The notes beneath the pieces are model-generated. The model saw only the letters and a list, made by a program, of their open reading frames with translations. It had not been told where the DNA came from and did no database searches. A DNA stretch of 21,873 bases from a virus (lineage: Duplodnaviria > Heunggongvirae > Uroviricota > Caudoviricetes). The translations under genes and the position numbers were made by a program. Shown piece after piece: positions 2,627 to 21,790 of this stretch. The stretch spans positions 1-21,873 of the IMG/VR virus record IMGVR_UViG_2529293246_000003, one strand, 5' to 3'. Positions within the stretch are counted from its first letter, which is position 1; each line of letters opens with the position of its first letter.

Positions 2627-3538
2627 TTAACGAGCCTTAGGGAGATTTGGGCGCTGCAAATTTTCTAAAACTTCAATAGCCTTAGTATTTTCAATTACTT
2701 TCTGCTGAACTTTATCAGCAAGATAATCTTTGAAACCCTTTGGAATGTATTCTTCTCTTAGCCATCTGCGAAATTCACCTAAAGCCTCTTCCGGATAAAT
2801 ATTGGCAGGAACTTTTCCTGCTTTACTTTGAGGAAACCAATCTGGATATTCATGTGGATATTTTTTCACATCGCCATATTTTTCACTAAGATTGTTTTTC
2901 TTCCAGTGGATTGCCCATCGTCCACCCACACTAATATCAGGTACTGTTTTTGGGCCAAGCTCAAATCCTGCATTGATAAGTGGAACTGTGATATCGACCA
3001 TCTCTCTAAAAACACTGAAGAAACCTGCAGGAATTTTGTCATTAAGCAATATTCGCTCTTGAAAACATTTCCAGGCGCCACTAATTGGATTTCTCGGGTC
3101 AATACCTACACTTTTGTATATATAGTCTCGAAGTGTTTGACGTGCTAATAGGCGGTAATTTTTCCTGGCTATAGTGCTATCAACCTGTGTGGCATCGAAA
3201 GCATAATATTCAAGAATTGCCATGCATACGGCATCTGGATAGGCATGTGTATCACCAAATGCGCCTCCGCCGACAACGGAATATAATTGATCACCTTTAA
3301 AACCATTCTCTGAAAGAAGCTCCGCAATTCTCCTTCCTCTGGGTTTATTCTTTTCTATTGACCAGTTGGTGGTGAGAGGTAAAAGTGTGGTGTGATCGAC
3401 CCCACATAACCTAGATAATCCACGGAGACTCAAAAATGGAGTTCCATCATTGAGAACACCCATTTGTACACCGTTTACTTCAACTTCTTTTACAGGAAAT
3501 AAAGACATTTCTTGTTGGTGGGCGGACTGATGGCTCAT
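2627..3538 (-). CDS. hypothetical protein of unknown function, co-directional with and directly downstream of cI (rexAB-equivalent slot)
   Basis: 303-aa ORF with ATG start and no competing ORF; 71-bp gap to the cI stop with no hairpin; markedly AT-rich compared with flanking genes. No motif assignable by eye; the N-terminal stretch VNGVQMGVLNDGTPFLSLRGLSRLCGV is only faintly reminiscent of KilA-N/Bro-N-type domains. Confidence 0.8.
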   Translation of the reverse strand: MSHQSAHQQEMSLFPVKEVEVNGVQMGVLNDGTPFLSLRGLSRLCGVDHTTLLPLTTNWSIEKNKPRGRRIAELLSENGFKGDQLYSVVGGGAFGDTHAYPDAVCMAILEYYAFDATQVDSTIARKNYRLLARQTLRDYIYKSVGIDPRNPISGAWKCFQERILLNDKIPAGFFSVFREMVDITVPLINAGFELGPKTVPDISVGGRWAIHWKKNNLSEKYGDVKKYPHEYPDWFPQSKAGKVPANIYPEEALGEFRRWLREEYIPKGFKDYLADKVQQKVIENTKAIEVLENLQRPNLPKAR

Positions 3539-3609: not shown

Positions 3610-4299
3610 CTAACCATGCTTCCTATATGTTTGCGGCATGCTCCCAATAACTTTCCCGAAGATAAACACCCGGTTCATCTCGTCTTTCTCGATCGGGTCC
3701 CACGGTGAGTAGCTCTTGTTATCAGAGATAACCAGCAGCTTATCCTTCATCATTTGCAGGCGCTTTACATGGGCGGTGTCGTCGTACAGAAACGCATAGA
3801 TGCCATCACCGTCGAAAGATTTAACCGTGATATCAACGAACAGCAGATCACCTGGTTCGATCGTTCCTGACATGCTGTCACCGCGTACGTTAATGATGCG
3901 GATATTTTCTGCCTTCCTACCATCGAACATGTGACGAGCATCGTCAAACGAGTACTCAACCGAGCGTAGAACTTCTACAAACTCACGGTTGATGACTCCC
4001 GGCCCGGCACTCACTTCTATATCAAGAACGTCAATCTTAAAGTATTTGGAATGGCTGACAGTTGATGGTATTGGTTGCACTGTACTGTCTGACATATTTC
4101 CAACGCCAGAAGATAACCATTCTGCGCGCACACCCAAAGCGTTCGCGATCTCCACGATTTTAGTTGTTTGGTTAGCTTTCCCTGTTTCGATTTTCTGAAT
4201 AGCAGCTTGGCTAACCCCGACCAAATCCCCAAGCGCCTTTTGTGTAAGGCCTCGCGCTAATCTGGCTTCTTTAAGTCTTTCTGAGAGTGTTGTTTTCAT
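3610..4299 (-). CDS. cI: CI-type prophage repressor (N-terminal HTH, C-terminal LexA/S24 autopeptidase domain)
   Basis: HTH segment LTQKALGDLVGVSQAAIQKIETGK; S24 catalytic Ser in RGDSMSGTIEPGDLL and Lys in HVKRL. Start placed at the internal ATG 4299 (MKTTLSERLKEARL..., 229 aa) because the track's ATG at 4365 runs into the cro promoter; no Shine-Dalgarno is present, consistent with a leaderless PRM-type transcript. Confidence 0.9.
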   Translation of the reverse strand: MKTTLSERLKEARLARGLTQKALGDLVGVSQAAIQKIETGKANQTTKIVEIANALGVRAEWLSSGVGNMSDSTVQPIPSTVSHSKYFKIDVLDIEVSAGPGVINREFVEVLRSVEYSFDDARHMFDGRKAENIRIINVRGDSMSGTIEPGDLLFVDITVKSFDGDGIYAFLYDDTAHVKRLQMMKDKLLVISDNKSYSPWDPIEKDEMNRVFIFGKVIGSMPQTYRKHG

Positions 4300-4403
4300 A
4301 GTCCAAATGTACAACCAAGGTTTTATTCTATCAAACGAAAATGGTTGTTGACTAAAAACAACCATAGTTTTAATCTTGATTCGAATTAACCACGGAGGTT
4401 GTT
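4300..4403. promoter_or_regulatory. OR-like divergent control region (PR/PRM and operators)
   Basis: Inverted repeat ATGGTTGTT(4341-4349)-N7-AACAACCAT(4357-4365); plus-strand -35 TTGACT (4348-4353), 17-bp spacer, -10 TAATCT (4371-4376); GGAGG (4393-4397) ahead of the cro ATG at 4404. Confidence 0.55.
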
Positions 4404-6259: not shown

Positions 6260-6957
6260 AAAACATCGCCGCACAGATGGTTAACTTTGACCGTGAGCAG
6301 ATGTGCCGGATCGCCAATAACATGCCGGAACAGTACGACGAAAAGCCGCAGGTACAGCAGGTAGCGCAGATCATCAACGGTGTATTCAGCCAGTTGCTGG
6401 CAACTTTCCCTGCGAGCCTGGCTAACCGTGACCAGAACGAACTGAACGAAATTCGCCGCCAGTGGGTTCTGGCTTTCCGGGAAAACGGGATCACCACAAT
6501 GGAACAGGTTAACGCTGGAATGCGCGTAGCCCGTCGGCAGAATCGACCATTCCTGCCATCACCCGGGCAGTTTGTCGCCTGGTGCCGGGAAGAAGCATCC
6601 GTTACCGCCGGGCTGCCAAACGCCAGCGAGCTGGTTGATATGGTTTACGAGTATTGCCGGAAGCGCGGGCTGTATCCGGATGCAGAGTCTTATCCGTGGA
6701 AATCAAACGCGCACTACTGGCTGGTTACCAACCTGTATCAGAACATGCGGGCCAATGCGTTGACTGACTCGGAATTACGGCGCAAGGCTGCCGATGAACT
6801 TGCCCATATGACTGCGAGAATTAACCGTGGTGAGGCTATACCTGAACCAGTAAAACAACTTCCTGTCATGGGCGGTAGACCTCTAAATCGTGCACAGGCT
6901 CTGGCGAAGATTGCAGAAATCAAAGCTAAGTTCGGACTGAAAGGAGCCAGTGTATGA
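6256..6957 (+). CDS. P: replication protein P (DnaB helicase loader)
   Basis: 233-aa ORF, recognisably lambda P nearly residue for residue (MKNIAAQMVNFDREQM...); ATGA overlap with the O stop. Confidence 0.95.
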   Translation: MKNIAAQMVNFDREQMCRIANNMPEQYDEKPQVQQVAQIINGVFSQLLATFPASLANRDQNELNEIRRQWVLAFRENGITTMEQVNAGMRVARRQNRPFLPSPGQFVAWCREEASVTAGLPNASELVDMVYEYCRKRGLYPDAESYPWKSNAHYWLVTNLYQNMRANALTDSELRRKAADELAHMTARINRGEAIPEPVKQLPVMGGRPLNRAQALAKIAEIKAKFGLKGASV

Positions 6958-7247
6958 CGGGAAAAGAAGCAATTATTCATTACCTGGGGACGCATAAGAG
7001 CTTCTGTGCGCAGGACGTTGCTGCGGTAACAGGCGCAACAGTAACCAGCATAAATCAGGCTGCGGCTAAAATGGCGCGGACAGGAATCTTAGTTATTGAT
7101 GGTAAGGTCTGGCGAACGGTGTATTACCGGTTCGCTACCAGGGAAGAACGGGAAGGAAAGGTGAGCACGAATCTGATTTTCAAGGAGTGTCGCCAGAGTG
7201 CCGCGATGAAGCGGGTGTTGGCATTTTATCGCGGCAATTTTCAATAG
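6954..7247 (+). CDS. ren: Ren protein
   Basis: 97-aa ORF recognisably lambda Ren (MTGKEAIIHYLGTH...); overlaps the P stop. Confidence 0.9.
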   Translation: MTGKEAIIHYLGTHKSFCAQDVAAVTGATVTSINQAAAKMARTGILVIDGKVWRTVYYRFATREEREGKVSTNLIFKECRQSAAMKRVLAFYRGNFQ

Positions 7248-7284
7248 ACTATGTACATAAAAATATCATTTTTTTAATACATGT

Positions 7285-7491
7285 CTAATTATTGGACGAA
7301 ATTGGTTTTTGCTTTGGTTTAGTTAGCCTAGCAATCAAGCCAGAGGCAATAATGATGATCCAAGCAATTTGATGCAATGCTACTCCAATATAAGAACCTT
7401 TATAGATAATAAAGGCATAGATCGCTAGAAACGAAATAAATATCCATAACGAAAGTTGATAAATTTTGGCGCGCATATTTAATCCAATCAA
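7285..7491 (-). CDS. putative small membrane protein (two predicted TM helices)
   Basis: 68-aa ORF (TTG start at 7491, or ATG at 7476 giving 63 aa); very hydrophobic and AT-rich; no convincing Shine-Dalgarno, so it is uncertain. Confidence 0.3.
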   Translation of the reverse strand: MIGLNMRAKIYQLSLWIFISFLAIYAFIIYKGSYIGVALHQIAWIIIIASGLIARLTKPKQKPISSNN

Positions 7492-7732
7492 TCAGAAAGA
7501 CGAGTAATCATAGAGGTACTATCACCCGGGTAACTATTGCTATTATGAACGGATAGGATAGAGGCTTCAATAACATATGCATCAAGTATGATGGAATATG
7601 TAGGTGAAAATGACTTGTGTCAAATTTGTGGAAATGAGTACCATGTTTCTCTGAAATTGATGTCGTTAATGGCTAGTGATAGTGAACTTTTTTACTTTAT
7701 AATTCCTTTGGTTATAACAATAAGGTAAATTT

Positions 7733-8293
7733 ATGAAGAAGATAATATTATTAGCCATGATTATTGGTTCTTTAACAGGTTGCGCTAGTGTGCCACCATT
7801 GAATTTTTCAACACCTAACGTGGGAGTTAGCCAGAAAAAAATAGATGCTGAAATTAAGTCATTAACGGTATCACTTGCTCGTCCAGATGAGCAGAAAGGG
7901 GATATCACTGCTGGTATGGAGGCTATAACTCCAATTTGGCGTGAATCTTTGCAGGAAGCACTCGACCGAATGACTATTTTTCGTGATAGTTCACCAAATA
8001 CGGTTAGCTTAAATGTTAAAGTGTTGGCTCTTGACGTTCCTGCTTTTGGTGTTTCAATGACAACTAAAGCAATTGCAAGGTATGAAATAATCAACCGTGC
8101 GAATGGTGATATTATATATACGCAGGATATTGAGTCTACCGGTACTGTTCCAGCCAGTTACGCATTCTACGGTATTGTTCGAGCACGCGAATCTGTTAAT
8201 CGCGCGGTGCAAAACAACATAACGCAGTTCTTGCAAGCATTAGAAAGTGTTGATCTTTCTCGTCCAATGTTTCCTGTTAGGGTAGCTAAATGA
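7733..8293 (+). CDS. putative lipoprotein, unknown family
   Basis: 186-aa ORF with signal peptide and lipobox (MKKIILLAMIIGSLTG-C); AAGG Shine-Dalgarno; its stop overlaps the next gene's start; AT-rich. Confidence 0.75.
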   Translation: MKKIILLAMIIGSLTGCASVPPLNFSTPNVGVSQKKIDAEIKSLTVSLARPDEQKGDITAGMEAITPIWRESLQEALDRMTIFRDSSPNTVSLNVKVLALDVPAFGVSMTTKAIARYEIINRANGDIIYTQDIESTGTVPASYAFYGIVRARESVNRAVQNNITQFLQALESVDLSRPMFPVRVAK

Positions 8294-8742
8294 AGCGATT
8301 ATTCGTAATTGCTCCACTCTTAGTGTTGGTTGGATGCGCACAAAATATATCGCCAAATAGTTATTCTGTTGGCTCTGTGGGCATGGTTAATCGAACTATC
8401 GCTGGTACAGTTATTAGTGCTAGGGGGGTTGATATCAGTGGGACTTCCGCGTTAGGCGGGACTGCTGGGGCTGCCGTGGGGGCAACCGCTGGTTCTGCGC
8501 TTGGTGGGGGAGTTCGTTCTAATATCGTTGGTGCCGTTGGTGGTGCAGTCATTGGTGGTATTGCCGGGGCAGCAATCGAATCTTCAGCAACAAAACAAAC
8601 AGGCATGGAATATGTTGTCGAAACTGAGAATGGGAATTTAATGACCATTGTTCAAGGCAAAGATCCGTTATTTACTCAAGGAAGTAAGGTCCTTGTTTTA
8701 TACGGAAACCCTTCTCGCATAATAACAGACCCGCGTCACTAA
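8290..8742 (+). CDS. glycine-zipper outer-membrane lipoprotein (SlyB/Pcp-like)
   Basis: 150-aa ORF with lipobox (LVLVG-C) and a GxxxG-rich glycine-zipper segment (GTAGAAVGATAGSALGGGV...GAVGGAVIGGIAGAAIE), overall resembling the E. coli SlyB/Pcp architecture from memory. Confidence 0.8.
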   Translation: MKRLFVIAPLLVLVGCAQNISPNSYSVGSVGMVNRTIAGTVISARGVDISGTSALGGTAGAAVGATAGSALGGGVRSNIVGAVGGAVIGGIAGAAIESSATKQTGMEYVVETENGNLMTIVQGKDPLFTQGSKVLVLYGNPSRIITDPRH

Positions 8743-8788
8743 CATACCTTTTGATTTTGTAAAATCAATTCGTAATAATAAAGTCATC

Positions 8789-8903
8789 GGAGCTTGAACA
8801 ACTCCGGTGACTTCTGCGCTAAACGGGGACGTTTATGCGCACACACAATCCAAACTCTCATCTCCATTCACAGATGCAGAAATGCACCTACGATTTTTTA
8901 CAT
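8789..8903 (+). repeat. direct repeat copy 1 (~115 bp)
   Basis: GGAGCTTGAACAACTCCGGTGACTTCTGCGCTAAACGGGGACGTTTATGCGCACA...CGATTTTTT; near-identical to 10723-10837 with a handful of mismatches by eye. Confidence 0.85.
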
Positions 8904-9318
8904 TCGGTGTTTTACTTCGACAGCCAGAATTGGGAGTCTCTATTCGTCTGGCGGCTAAAGGTGATATGGAAATCGTTATGTTTTGGCCTGAGGTAGTTGT
9001 AACTGTTGTAGCAGCTATGGCTGTGATCATCATGGTGTCCATTTACTGGGGTTGACGACATGATTTATCCGGCGCTATATTCTGTGCGTTGCCGCAAAAT
9101 CGGCACACGGGATTGGCGTCCCGGGATACTACTCAACGCATACCGCGTTAAGCGGTTTTTTTGTGCGCTAAGCACGGCTATGCCCAAATTATGGTGGGCT
9201 GTGTGAGGGCTTCTTCGGAAGCGCCGGGTTTGAGTAGCCGGTTACGCCAACCTTACACAGTTCACCACCAGTCGATTGGCGTCGTTGGTGGTGATGGTTA
9301 ACCTGATGAGGTGATACT

Positions 9319-9927
9319 ATGACTACTCAATTAGCATTCCACAAAACGACGTTTACCCCGATTTGCCACAATAACAGAATTTGGCTTACTGCCACTGAAG
9401 TTGGTTTAGCACTGGAATATGCGGACGATAAAGCAGTTCAGCGCATTTACTCTCGGCACTCAGATGAATTCACAGATATGATGACAAGGGTGGTCAAAGT
9501 GACCACCCCTCGTGGAATGCAGGAGTCTCGAGTATTTAGCCTTCGCGGAGCCCATTTGATCGCCATGTTTGCTCGTACTCCTGTGGCCAAAGAATTCCGC
9601 CGCTGGGTTCTGGATATTCTCGATCGAGAAGTTCAACAATCCCCAATCACAAAACAATTCACTGATAACGAACTTTGCACACTCGCCTGGTTATGGCGAG
9701 CAAGTGATACGATGTTAACCGCCTGCCAGAACGTTACGCCCCTTCTTCAGGTCGCAGAGCATCGCGAAGCAGGTAGATTCACTTCAATCGAACAAGAATA
9801 TCCTCGGATACTCAACAGGGCGCGAGAAATCCTTGCCAGAGAAACGGCGCATGTAAAATTCCAACCGTGGCAGGATGATAAGTGGAGTCGTGTGTTACCA
9901 TATTTCCGTCAGAATCTGTTGCAATAA
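9319..9927 (+). CDS. Bro-N domain phage antirepressor-like protein
   Basis: 202-aa ORF with GAGGTGA Shine-Dalgarno; the N-terminal 100 aa fit the Bro-N/AntA pattern (TFTPICHNNRIWLTATEVGLALEY...SLRGAHLIAMFARTPVAKEFRRWVLDIL). Confidence 0.8.
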   Translation: MTTQLAFHKTTFTPICHNNRIWLTATEVGLALEYADDKAVQRIYSRHSDEFTDMMTRVVKVTTPRGMQESRVFSLRGAHLIAMFARTPVAKEFRRWVLDILDREVQQSPITKQFTDNELCTLAWLWRASDTMLTACQNVTPLLQVAEHREAGRFTSIEQEYPRILNRAREILARETAHVKFQPWQDDKWSRVLPYFRQNLLQ

Positions 9928-9946
9928 AGTCACTAGTTAGAAATAC

Positions 9947-9987
9947 TGCCAGCATTCTGCGATGACGGAAGTGCTGGCATTTTTTTT
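9947..9987 (+). terminator. rho-independent terminator after the antirepressor gene
   Basis: Stem TGCCAGCA(9947-9954)/TGCTGGCA(9972-9979) extended by TTC/GAA, followed by a run of 8 T (9980-9987). Confidence 0.65.
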
Positions 9988-10162
9988 GGTAATGTGCGAG
10001 TCCATTTCATAAAATACGGGTACTGGAACTGGACGATATAATCTAAAAGATACCATTATCAGTAGCATTAAAATCGCTATGTGCCGATACGGATATAAAT
10101 TATATTGATTGTTCACATACCTTATTGGATATTACTGAGGGGTGTTTATATAAGGTGTAACG

Positions 10163-10672
10163 ATGATGTGGAACTTTGACAGTGCCGACTTAAGTGCAAT
10201 AGCAGCAGGCATTTCTGCGTTTGGCACATTAGCCGCAGCGGGGTCGGCGCTTGCAAGTTGGTACACGTCAAAAAAAGCGCTGCAGCTACAAAATAGAGTT
10301 TACCTTTATGAGTCTTTAAAGGCTTGCGCTGAGAGAGCCAATTCATCAGCTAAAGATAAGCGCGGATCTGAATGGAGCGTTAATGATGCAGCGGATATCA
10401 TCAGGTGCCTAGTACGGGCGATGGAGATCATCAAGCAGGATAGCCAGCAGAAAGAAGGTAATCAGGCATTAATGTTGAAACAGTACTTTGTTAATCTGCT
10501 AATAATGGAACTGTACGAGGAAGTTCATAACGGTGATGCGGCTGATTCTGTTTTTAAAAGTACGGAACCTACACAAGTACTTGATAACTTATGGAGCAAA
10601 TGGCAGGAGGCTATAGCTTTTTTTGATATTTGGAATTACCCAGTTGCGACTGAGGAAGACTTGGCAGACTAA
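10163..10672 (+). CDS. hypothetical membrane-anchored protein (single N-terminal TM helix, acidic soluble C-terminal domain)
   Basis: 169-aa ORF; AAGGTG Shine-Dalgarno; preceded by the terminator and an AT-rich promoter-like stretch (TTGATT at 10106-10111); TM segment LSAIAAGISAFGTLAAAGSALASWY; no family recognised. Confidence 0.7.
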   Translation: MMWNFDSADLSAIAAGISAFGTLAAAGSALASWYTSKKALQLQNRVYLYESLKACAERANSSAKDKRGSEWSVNDAADIIRCLVRAMEIIKQDSQQKEGNQALMLKQYFVNLLIMELYEEVHNGDAADSVFKSTEPTQVLDNLWSKWQEAIAFFDIWNYPVATEEDLAD

Positions 10673-10722
10673 TTTTCAGCACATTTGATTTCCAATAATC
10701 AACCAGCCATAATCATGCCATT

Positions 10723-10837
10723 GGAGCTTGAACAACTCCGGTGACTTCTGCGCTAAACGGGGACGTTTATGCGCACATACAATCCAAACTCTCTTCTCCC
10801 TTCACAGATGCAGAAATGCACCTGCGATTTTTTGCAT
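10723..10837 (+). repeat. direct repeat copy 2 (~115 bp)
   Basis: Partner of 8789-8903; this copy sits immediately upstream of the ybcN-like gene. Confidence 0.85.
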
Positions 10838-10870
10838 CCAGCGTCTGACCTCTGCGGAGGTGAAGCGTGA
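10769..10870 (+). CDS. 33-codon small ORF inside repeat copy 2 (YlcH-like position)
   Basis: ATG 10769, [33 protein letters not shown]; its stop TGA (10868-10870) overlaps the GTG start of the next gene (GTGA). DLP12 carries a ~33-aa ylcH immediately upstream of ybcN as I recall; copy 1 has a diverged version starting at 8835. Confidence 0.35.
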
Positions 10871-11322
10871 ACCTACCACAAGATGGCATCAAACTGCATC
10901 GCGGTAACTTCACCGCTATCGGCCAGCAGATCCAGCCTTATCTGGAGGACGGAAAATGCTTTCGCATGGTGCTTAAACCGTGGCGTGAGAAACGCAGTCT
11001 TTCCCAGAATGCACTCAGCCACATGTGGTACAGCGAAATCAGTGAATACCTCATCAGCAGGGGGAAATCGTTCGCTACCGCAGCATGGGTAAAAGATGCT
11101 CTCAAACACACATACCTCGGTTATGAAACCAAGGACCTGGTTGATGTCGTAACCGGCGAAATCACTACTATCCAGTCGTTACGCCATACTTCCGATCTTG
11201 ATACCGGAGAGATGTATGTCTTCCTGTGTAAGGTTGAAGCCTGGGCGATGAATATTGGCTGCCACCTGACTATTCCGCAGAGCTGCGAGTTCCAGCTGCT
11301 GCGCGACAAGCAGGAGGCGTAA
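10867..11322 (+). CDS. ybcN: NinB/Orf-family recombination mediator (DLP12 YbcN-like)
   Basis: 151-aa ORF with GTG start and GGAGG at 10856-10860; the [15 protein letters not shown] segment matches the NinB-family motif; followed by ninE as in lambdoid nin regions. Confidence 0.75.
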
Positions 11323-11492
11323 TGGCTACACCGCTTATTCGTGTCATGAACGGACACATCTACAGAGTACCAAATCGTCGTAAGCGTAAGCCTGAGCTGA
11401 AGCCATCCGAAATACCAACACTGCTCGGATATACCGCTAGCTTGTTTGATAAAAAATGGTTGCGACTGGCAGCAAGGAGGAGTCATGGCTGA
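11322..11492 (+). CDS. ninE: NinE-family small protein
   Basis: 56-aa ORF below the track's size cut-off, translated by hand ([56 protein letters not shown]); TAATG overlap with the ybcN-like stop; basic C-terminus like lambda NinE. Confidence 0.7.
   Translation: MATPLIRVMNGHIYRVPNRRKRKPELKPSEIPTLLGYTASLFDKKWLRLAARRSHG

Positions 11493-20920: not shown

Positions 20921-21790
<870 letters not shown>

Follow-up and report, generated by a model that had tools for sequence, protein, structure and literature searches.

Why does a single open reading frame (ORF) of 169 codons stand between ren and ninB of a lambda-like prophage, at a place where lambda itself passes from ren through tR2 directly to ninB? 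The ORF, here called ORF169, lies in the virus record IMGVR_UViG_2529293246_000003 (positions 1 to 21,873; this whole stretch of 21,873 nucleotides (nt) is referred to as the window), which is a lambda-like Escherichia coli prophage. A sequence-only reading of the window had described ORF169 as a stand-alone promoter-gene unit, or moron, encoding a membrane-anchored protein that might serve in phage exclusion or abortive infection. The overall explanation that we favor, with a probability of about 0.4, is a self-contained cassette acting on the side of the lysogen, whose membrane protein would be directed against superinfecting phage. The cassette itself and the anatomy of its protein are very probably as described here. 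Their parts are as follows.

9946-9990, plus strand: rho-independent terminator, a 13-base-pair (bp) GC-rich hairpin followed by U8.
9991-10104, plus strand: AT-rich spacer, specific to E. coli alleles, without a conserved promoter element.
10105-10133, plus strand: putative sigma-70-type promoter, with -35 TTGATT at 10105-10110, a 17-nt spacer and -10 GATATT at 10128-10133.
10120-10140, plus strand: weak hairpin remnant, CCTTA/TGAGG, whose loop holds the -10.
10152-10157, plus strand: Shine-Dalgarno AAGGTG, read directly off the sequence; the ATG follows after 5 nt.
10163-10672, plus strand: ORF169 coding sequence, ATG start, 169 amino acids (aa), WP_000990013.1, phrog_1779, a predicted bitopic inner-membrane protein.
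10190-10264, plus strand: transmembrane (TM) helix, residues ~10-34, rich in Ala, Gly and Ser.
10274-10642, plus strand: predicted cytoplasmic all-helical bundle, residues ~38-160 (AlphaFold2).
10649-10669, plus strand: acidic C-terminal tail T-E-E-D-L-A-D, of the pattern T-[DE]-E-D-L-x-D, with a low predicted local distance difference test (pLDDT) score.
10684-10852, plus strand: D1' element (ylcH/ninB leader), the second D1 copy and right boundary of the cargo slot.

Comparison with homologues 70-75% identical gave a ratio of nonsynonymous to synonymous substitution rates (dN/dS, omega) of 0.09-0.12 at a dS of 1.5-2.3. An omega of about 0.1 over saturated synonymous divergence indicates that ORF169 is a real gene, as the sequence-only reading had assumed. 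Of 74 loci, 71 have it at full length. Among 5426 complete E. coli genomes, 181 (3.3%) carry it, always on the chromosome, and so do two isolated phages, PhiR26_1 and PhiR5_1; the exact protein is found on at least 1000 contigs, named hypothetical throughout, as is WP_000990013.1. The family is small: an exhaustive profile search of 1.84 billion representative proteins yielded only 35 relatives, with conserved length and motifs, and the family was seen only in lambda-like prophages. Members 44-100% identical stand directly upstream of D1 and ninB, or of a DUF1367 gene in the same place, while their upstream neighbors vary (antirepressor, DUF551 proteins, a MazG-like protein, unknowns).

ORF169 matches phrog_1779 from end to end (E = 1.2e-102; residues 1-169 on profile positions 1-169 of 169), as do all 25 full-length diverged relatives tested; this family carries no functional annotation. 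Searches of ORF169 and 25 relatives against Pfam, NCBIfam, PADLOC and PDB sequences returned nothing meaningful. Against PADLOC-DB v2, ORF169 had no family match at E up to 1, and the 25 relatives gave scattered single-member matches, the best at E = 0.0018. The earlier remark that no family could be recognized is therefore correct apart from phrog_1779, and a literature search found no characterization of ORF169, phrog_1779, the PhiR phages or ylcH. At six loci (L012-L014 and L018-L020), phrog_1779 members 18-19% identical to ORF169 adjoin bacteriocin modules inside prophages or prophage remnants, in which an S-type pyocin is paired with a putative immunity gene, or which hold a colicin/pyocin immunity gene.

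The intergenic region before ORF169 (9928-10162) has a guanine-plus-cytosine (GC) content of 36.6%. A generic promoter scan over 7200-11400 gave 11 sites against 8.5 ± 2.6 expected, which is the chance level. Its sole match in the spacer, TTGGTA-18-TAAAAT (9986-10015), overlaps the T-run of the terminator and is not conserved beyond E. coli alleles; the TATAAT further on (10037-10042), altered by mutation in PhiR5_1, is likewise not conserved beyond E. coli alleles. Both were rejected. Conservation pointed elsewhere when the 80 nt upstream of the gene were aligned for 10 loci with proteins 50-100% identical. TTG of the -35 and all six bases of the -10 GATATT are invariant in 10 of 10 loci, and the 17-nt spacing is ungapped while the spacer sequence diverges. 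Nine of the 14 invariant columns fall within the 12 hexamer columns (hypergeometric P ~1e-6, or ~2e-4 after allowing for 164 possible placements), and two loci more diverged still carry TATAAT or TGaTATAAT at the equivalent place. GAGG/AAGG of the Shine-Dalgarno is conserved in the same alignment.

By this comparison, the conserved putative promoter is the element at 10105-10133 and not the more obvious AT-rich matches further upstream, with transcription predicted to start at ~10138-10141 and to give a leader of ~23 nt. The sequence-only reading was right that an AT-rich stretch and a promoter-like element precede the gene, and right about the good Shine-Dalgarno; the conserved element does not lie in the conspicuous AT-rich matches. 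We put the odds that ORF169 is transcribed from this predicted promoter in the prophage state at somewhat better than even.

The promoter is associated with a hairpin, which was judged by per-sequence folds. In the window it is weak (-6.3 kcal/mol, z = -1.0). In relatives L082, L064, L065, L004 and L005, an ATACCCT...AGGGTAT hairpin with a U-rich run holds the -10 in its loop and folds at -10 to -15 kcal/mol (z = -2.8 to -5.6). The two loci that have diverged most carry a CCCCTC...GAGGGG hairpin after the -10. Covariation in the stems is slight. Several relatives with a strong promoter hairpin lack the terminator found at 9946-9990 of the window, where it stands separately, 150 nt upstream. 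We infer that the promoter hairpin would be a terminator or insulator formed only by transcripts arriving from upstream, and not by those started at the promoter itself. Such a promoter inside a hairpin would be a compact example of the insulation of cargo from phage early transcription.

The position of ORF169 was examined by comparing gene order.

Window, left part: exo/bet/gam, then cI (3610-4365, minus strand), a YdaT-like gene, O, P and ren (6954-7247).
Window, ren-ninB interval, in order: a 68-aa hydrophobic ORF (minus strand), two lipoprotein genes, D1, isrK, a C4-like RNA, the antirepressor gene, the terminator, ORF169, and the second D1 running into ninB.
Window, right part: ninB/ybcN (10867), then ninE, ybcO, rusA, ylcG, Q (12268), and lysis and packaging genes.

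The ren-ninB interval, which lambda crosses directly through tR2, holds 3.6 kb of cargo in the window. In the DLP12 prophage of E. coli K-12, ybcL-ybcM fill the slot of ORF169, between ybcK and the ylcH/ybcN leader. In enterotoxigenic E. coli (ETEC) B7A and in O104:H4, ORF169 lies within a DLP12-like cryptic prophage in place of K-12 ybcL-ybcM, in the order emrE, ylcJ, ybcK, antirepressor fragment, ORF169, ylcH, ybcN. Between B7A and K-12, homology is lost after ybcK and regained exactly at the start of D1. ORF169 is intact in O104:H4, where the neighboring SMR-family (emrE-like), zinc-ribbon (ybcK-like), antirepressor (Rha) fragment and rusA sequences are pseudogenes. In PhiR26_1, a sister phage, the defense gene PD-lambda-1/SNIPE occupies the same ren-ninB interval.

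The limits of the cassette can be read from two comparisons. Homology of locus L080 with the window begins only at 10086, ~20 nt before the promoter, and the K-12 junction lies at 10684, where D1 begins 12 nt past the ORF169 stop, indicating that the mobile unit is promoter plus gene. The first terminator-like site 3' of ORF169 (10809-10834) is part of the D1/ylcH leader, which also occurs without ORF169. The GC content of ORF169 is 44.1%, and 42.9% at third codon positions (GC3), compared with 51%/61% for ninB, 54%/58% for P and 53%/59% for rusA.

ORF169 stands between genes that in related phages are neighbors or have other contents between them, has its own promoter element directly upstream, as judged by sequence conservation, and differs from the backbone in base composition. 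These observations support its assignment as a putative accessory (moron) cassette in an exchangeable cargo slot, which begins after ren, ends at the ylcH/ninB leader and borders the nin region on its left. The proposal of a stand-alone promoter-gene unit is borne out, at the level of sequence, by the conserved promoter, the upstream terminator, the lower GC, the cassette boundaries and the presence of ybcL-ybcM in the same slot.

The strong terminator that had been noted upstream of the gene was found at 9946-9990, where a 76-nt stretch folds at -23.2 kcal/mol (z = -2.75). A generic terminator scan missed it; every E. coli-type locus has it at -222 nt, with a conservation of 93-100%. It follows a block with these features.

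9052-9081: promoter-like TTGACG-18-TATATT, before isrK.
9090-9162: isrK small RNA (sRNA; Rfam, 58.7 bits).
9161-9301: orf45-like ORF, 46 aa.
9187-9272: C4-like antisense RNA (Rfam, 74.8 bits).
9319-9927: BRO-N/P22AR_C antirepressor gene, a Rha/AnrP homologue (Pfam).

This block, 9052-9990 with its terminator, is an immI/isrK-type module. The C4 target model c4-a1b1 gave a sub-threshold match at 9075-9127 (39.6 bits against a gathering score of 46.7). The Gifsy-1 transcript isrK-orf45-anrP-isrJ has the same layout, and its length matches the ~900 nt of the window block (PMC4825925). The shared layout identifies the terminator as the end of the isrK-orf45-antirepressor operon, an attribution that, like the position of the conserved promoter, goes beyond the sequence-only reading. 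The predicted role of the terminator is to stop transcription of this operon and so to insulate ORF169. The 3' end of ren (7192-7227) is 75% identical to 9948-9983 of the terminator (repeat family D3); the D3 repeat may be a shared or duplicated terminator-type sequence at module joints.

The protein is acidic, as had been stated (pI 4.6; 24 Asp and Glu vs. 15 Lys and Arg). Its single N-terminal TM helix is borderline in the window allele (best 19-residue Kyte-Doolittle mean 1.59) and clear in the family, where 33 of 37 members reach 1.6 or more with a median of 1.86; one relative, P0042, has extra N-terminal hydrophobic segments. Across the 37 family members, the part ahead of the helix has on average 0.2 Lys and Arg and the 15 residues behind it 3.3, with net charges of -1.2 and +2.1. 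Under the positive-inside rule, this distribution predicts an N-out/C-in topology, with a short acidic N-tail outside, containing ~9 acidic residues before the helix, and the bulk of the protein in the cytoplasm. The conserved small residues S18, A24, A29 and S32 lie on one face of the helix, and S32 is invariant family-wide. This pattern suggests self-association of the TM helix, which we consider probable.

An AlphaFold2 model built from 37 sequences (pLDDT 77.8) has one long helix running from the membrane into the bundle (7-63), further helices at 73-94, 100-112, 115-123 and 138-153, and a flexible tail. The sequence-only reading had suggested structure prediction and a remote-homology search as a check: fold searches with the model returned generic helical bundles only, with no informative match, and phrog_1779 was the only family matched. 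The conserved positions are mostly hydrophobic or small (L52, A56, N60, W71, A86, F109, L113 and W147), and no catalytic-looking constellation was seen among them. Within the close subfamily of 14 sequences, T163, E165, D166, L167 and D169 of the tail are invariant, and 22 of the 37 family members have a motif related to it. The acidic tail is probably a flexible interaction motif.

Taken together as a mechanism, ORF169 would be transcribed in the lysogen from its own promoter to the benefit of the host-prophage pair; its product would sit in the inner membrane and, on the cytoplasmic side, use its bundle and tail to contact other proteins, and those contacts would exclude or abort superinfecting phage. 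A role on the lysogen side is favored because of the conserved promoter and upstream terminator, the cargo-like composition, the contents of the slot (PD-lambda-1/SNIPE, lipoproteins, ybcL-ybcM) and the retention of the gene in a cryptic prophage. An exclusion or defense function as such is a tentative assignment that we would sooner doubt than assert. The most specific version, in which ORF169 is the first of a new family of anti-phage proteins, each membrane-anchored and encoded by a single gene in the ren-ninB slot, expressed in the lysogen from a hairpin-insulated promoter and acting on superinfection through bundle and tail, seems unlikely.

Morons of lambda-like phages are promoter-gene-terminator cassettes, HK97 gp15 being an example. 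Like them, ORF169 is an extra gene between backbone genes that are adjacent in related phages, with lower GC than the backbone, its own promoter-like element, a terminator upstream and a small membrane protein as product. HK97 gp15 (62 aa) has no sequence similarity to ORF169 (BLASTP E = 26), and ORF169, whose promoter is putative, lies in the early-right region and not among the tail genes. Like SieB of lambda and P22, T4 Imm and Cor, ORF169 is a small membrane protein; it is encoded in a temperate-phage early region and has a plausible prophage-state promoter. It has no similarity to lambda SieB, however (BLASTP E = 1.8; hhalign probability 0.05%), and lambda sieB is transcribed opposite to PL. 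Neither ORF169 nor its relatives matched a PHROG annotated as superinfection exclusion, nor did ORF169 have such a match in Pfam, and membership in the SieB or HK97 gp15 families was rejected on the BLASTP and hhalign results. The ybcL-ybcM pair of K-12 DLP12 shares exactly the same slot and the same two junctions, but the proteins are unrelated, YbcL being annotated as periplasmic and YbcM as a putative DNA-binding regulator.

Two further identities were considered and rejected. An i-spanin of the Rz kind also joins an N-terminal TM helix to a helical domain, but belongs to a lysis cassette with an o-spanin partner and has an N-in/C-out topology. ORF169 lies 2.6 kb upstream of the lysis-region ORFs (start 13267), is predicted from charge to be C-in, and has no Rz PHROG match; in sister loci, holin, lysozyme and lysis protein genes follow Q at the position corresponding to the lysis ORFs of the window. 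A HEPN toxin was indicated by weak Foldseek neighbors, at E of 0.47 or worse and TM-score of 0.34 or lower; the Rx4-6H motif is absent, the sole His (H122) having no Arg 4-6 residues before it.

SNIPE/PD-lambda-1 is a membrane-bound nuclease that cleaves injected phage DNA and has an N-terminal TM anchor, which places it at the cell membrane, ahead of DUF4041 and nuclease domains (bioRxiv 10.1101/2025.11.03.685801). ORF169 shares with it the ren-ninB interval, where SNIPE stands in PhiR26_1, and the N-terminal TM anchor. It differs in having no DUF4041, nuclease domain or PADLOC match, in its size (169 aa vs. ~500), and in being oriented as PR, PD-lambda-1 being on the opposite strand in PhiR26_1.

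Several findings weigh against the lysogen-side, anti-phage explanation. The promoter is non-consensus, with 4/6 and 4/6 matches in the window and a -35 of 3/6 in most relatives, and falls under the generic-scan threshold; no transcript, start-site or phenotype data were found in the literature on WP_000990013.1 and phrog_1779. ORF169 has no similarity to any known defense or exclusion protein in the PADLOC, PHROGs, SieB and HK97 gp15 comparisons, and it was not noticed among the systems of the E. coli defense selection of Vassallo et al. (PMC9519451), whose text was searched for other terms only. Three of the 74 loci have a frameshifted, stop-containing copy. The members are always oriented as the early-right operon, so that N-antiterminated lytic transcripts would also express the gene, and distant members (18-25% identity), which lack the conserved promoter, directly follow an N-like gene in a PL-type operon or belong to a prophage remnant.

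The last two points are also what a delayed-early lytic accessory gene would lead one to expect, expressed mainly from N-antiterminated PR transcripts like other nin genes and serving phage development, for example in counter-defense, host takeover or membrane remodeling. The co-orientation with the early operon holds in every locus, most non-E. coli members stand only 35-120 nt after the upstream ORF, and the family is restricted to lambda-like phages, always in an early region. We nevertheless regard this explanation as rather unlikely, given the conserved promoter directly upstream with a terminator or hairpin before it, the intact gene among decayed neighbors in the cryptic DLP12-like prophage, and the cargo-like GC. 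Expression from the gene's own promoter and by N-antiterminated PR transcripts would not be mutually exclusive. The intact state in a cryptic prophage would also suit a lysogenic-conversion factor that acts on host physiology and has nothing to do with phage (in envelope stress or colonization, for example), in parallel to ybcL-ybcM, whose slot is identical. Occurrence in pathotypes such as O104:H4 and ETEC B7A, and the exact protein on so many contigs, agree with this. Such a role is quite unlikely, since most of the protein is predicted to lie in the cytoplasm, from where host-facing surfaces are not obviously within reach, no homology related to virulence was found, and only 3.3% of complete E. 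coli genomes carry the gene.

The remaining explanations concern how the protein works, or whether it works on its own. The small or polar residues S11, S18, T22, A25/A26, A29 and S32 line one face of the TM helix, S32 being invariant and A29 nearly so across the family, and the model shows one continuous helix from 7 to 63. An abortive-infection effector could be built in this way, with the bundle sensing a phage cue and Ser/Thr/Ala-lined helices oligomerizing to form a leak or pore lethal to the infected cell. However, the TM helix is single and of marginal hydrophobicity, no partner or immunity gene is conserved beside ORF169, and simple helix packing explains the conserved small residues equally well, so that we hold a pore to be decidedly unlikely. 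A partnership with the adjacent antirepressor (Rha/AnrP homologue), for example as a membrane tether or regulator of prophage induction, would fit the E. coli-type loci (alleles 96-100% identical), in all of which ORF169 is preceded by the terminator and by no less than the 3' part of the antirepressor gene, which encodes P22AR_C. It is very improbable because diverged homologues (44-75% identical) have unrelated upstream neighbors (DUF551 proteins, a MazG-like protein or unknowns) and because the Rha fragment of O104:H4 is a pseudogene beside an intact ORF169; in addition, L080 shares sequence only from 10086 on, and a terminator separates the two genes. The frameshifted copies with an internal stop in three loci are what a chance ORF or decaying remnant without function would produce, but this idea is effectively refuted by the selection analysis, and the conserved length and motifs of 35 diverged representatives also speak against it. 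Set against these alternatives, the self-contained lysogen-side cassette remains our best explanation, and ORF169 is a reasonable phage-exclusion candidate, ordinary but well-defined, with nothing yet that would surprise a specialist.

The D1 element that bounds the cassette on the right occurs twice in the window.

8750-8918: D1, first copy, 169 nt, a direct repeat 86% identical to the second copy at 10684-10852.

D1 is an RNA-like element, structured and conserved, that separates the cargo slot from ninB/ybcN, with a K-12 counterpart at ~572283-572469 of NC_000913 (ylcH region). RNAalifold on a MAFFT alignment gave a poor consensus with misaligned stems, and each sequence was folded separately instead. 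The stem of hairpin 1 (8-10 bp) varies between loci but stays paired, and its loop, C(C/U)UGAACAAC, is near-invariant; in hairpin 2, the stem of 10-11 bp shows likewise compensatory changes and the GGGA loop is invariant; the last hairpin is UGCA-GAAA-UGCA followed by U6 (10809-10834). D1 also carries a conserved TTGATT-17-CATAAT. The ylcH ORF (33 aa) is open in diverged D1 copies, its stop codon overlapping the ninB start (GTGA/ATGA). No Rfam match to D1 was found at E up to 1. From these features, D1 could be an sRNA, or a leader or attenuator of the nin operon.

Other ORFs of the window were noted as well. Two adjoining lipoprotein genes (7733-8742; GC3 30-34%) encode proteins of 186 aa (phrog_12521) and of 150 aa with a glycine-zipper region (phrog_13877), and are preceded by a promoter-like GTGATA-16-TATAAT at 7676-7703; the pair, at 7676-8742, looks like a further cargo unit of the ren-ninB interval. 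Just past ren, a 68-aa ORF with two hydrophobic stretches and no Pfam match lies opposite the early operon (7285-7491, minus strand), and small ORFs are annotated on the same strand at the corresponding place in PhiR5_1. A 302-aa ORF without a Pfam match stands just downstream of cI (2627-3538, minus strand), where lambda has rexAB, and may be another prophage cargo gene. In the late region, a 273-aa ORF (20921-21745, minus strand) runs opposite to its neighbors and encodes a LEM-3-like GIY-YIG nuclease domain (E = 3.7e-14).

ORF169 is for now a further uncharacterized accessory gene of a prophage, with its boundaries, regulatory elements, topology and family defined. If ORF169 is an exclusion or defense factor, it would add a small single-gene system to a slot that already holds SNIPE/PD-lambda-1, and would assign a role to a protein that ~3% of complete E. 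coli genomes encode, those of O104:H4 and ETEC B7A among them.

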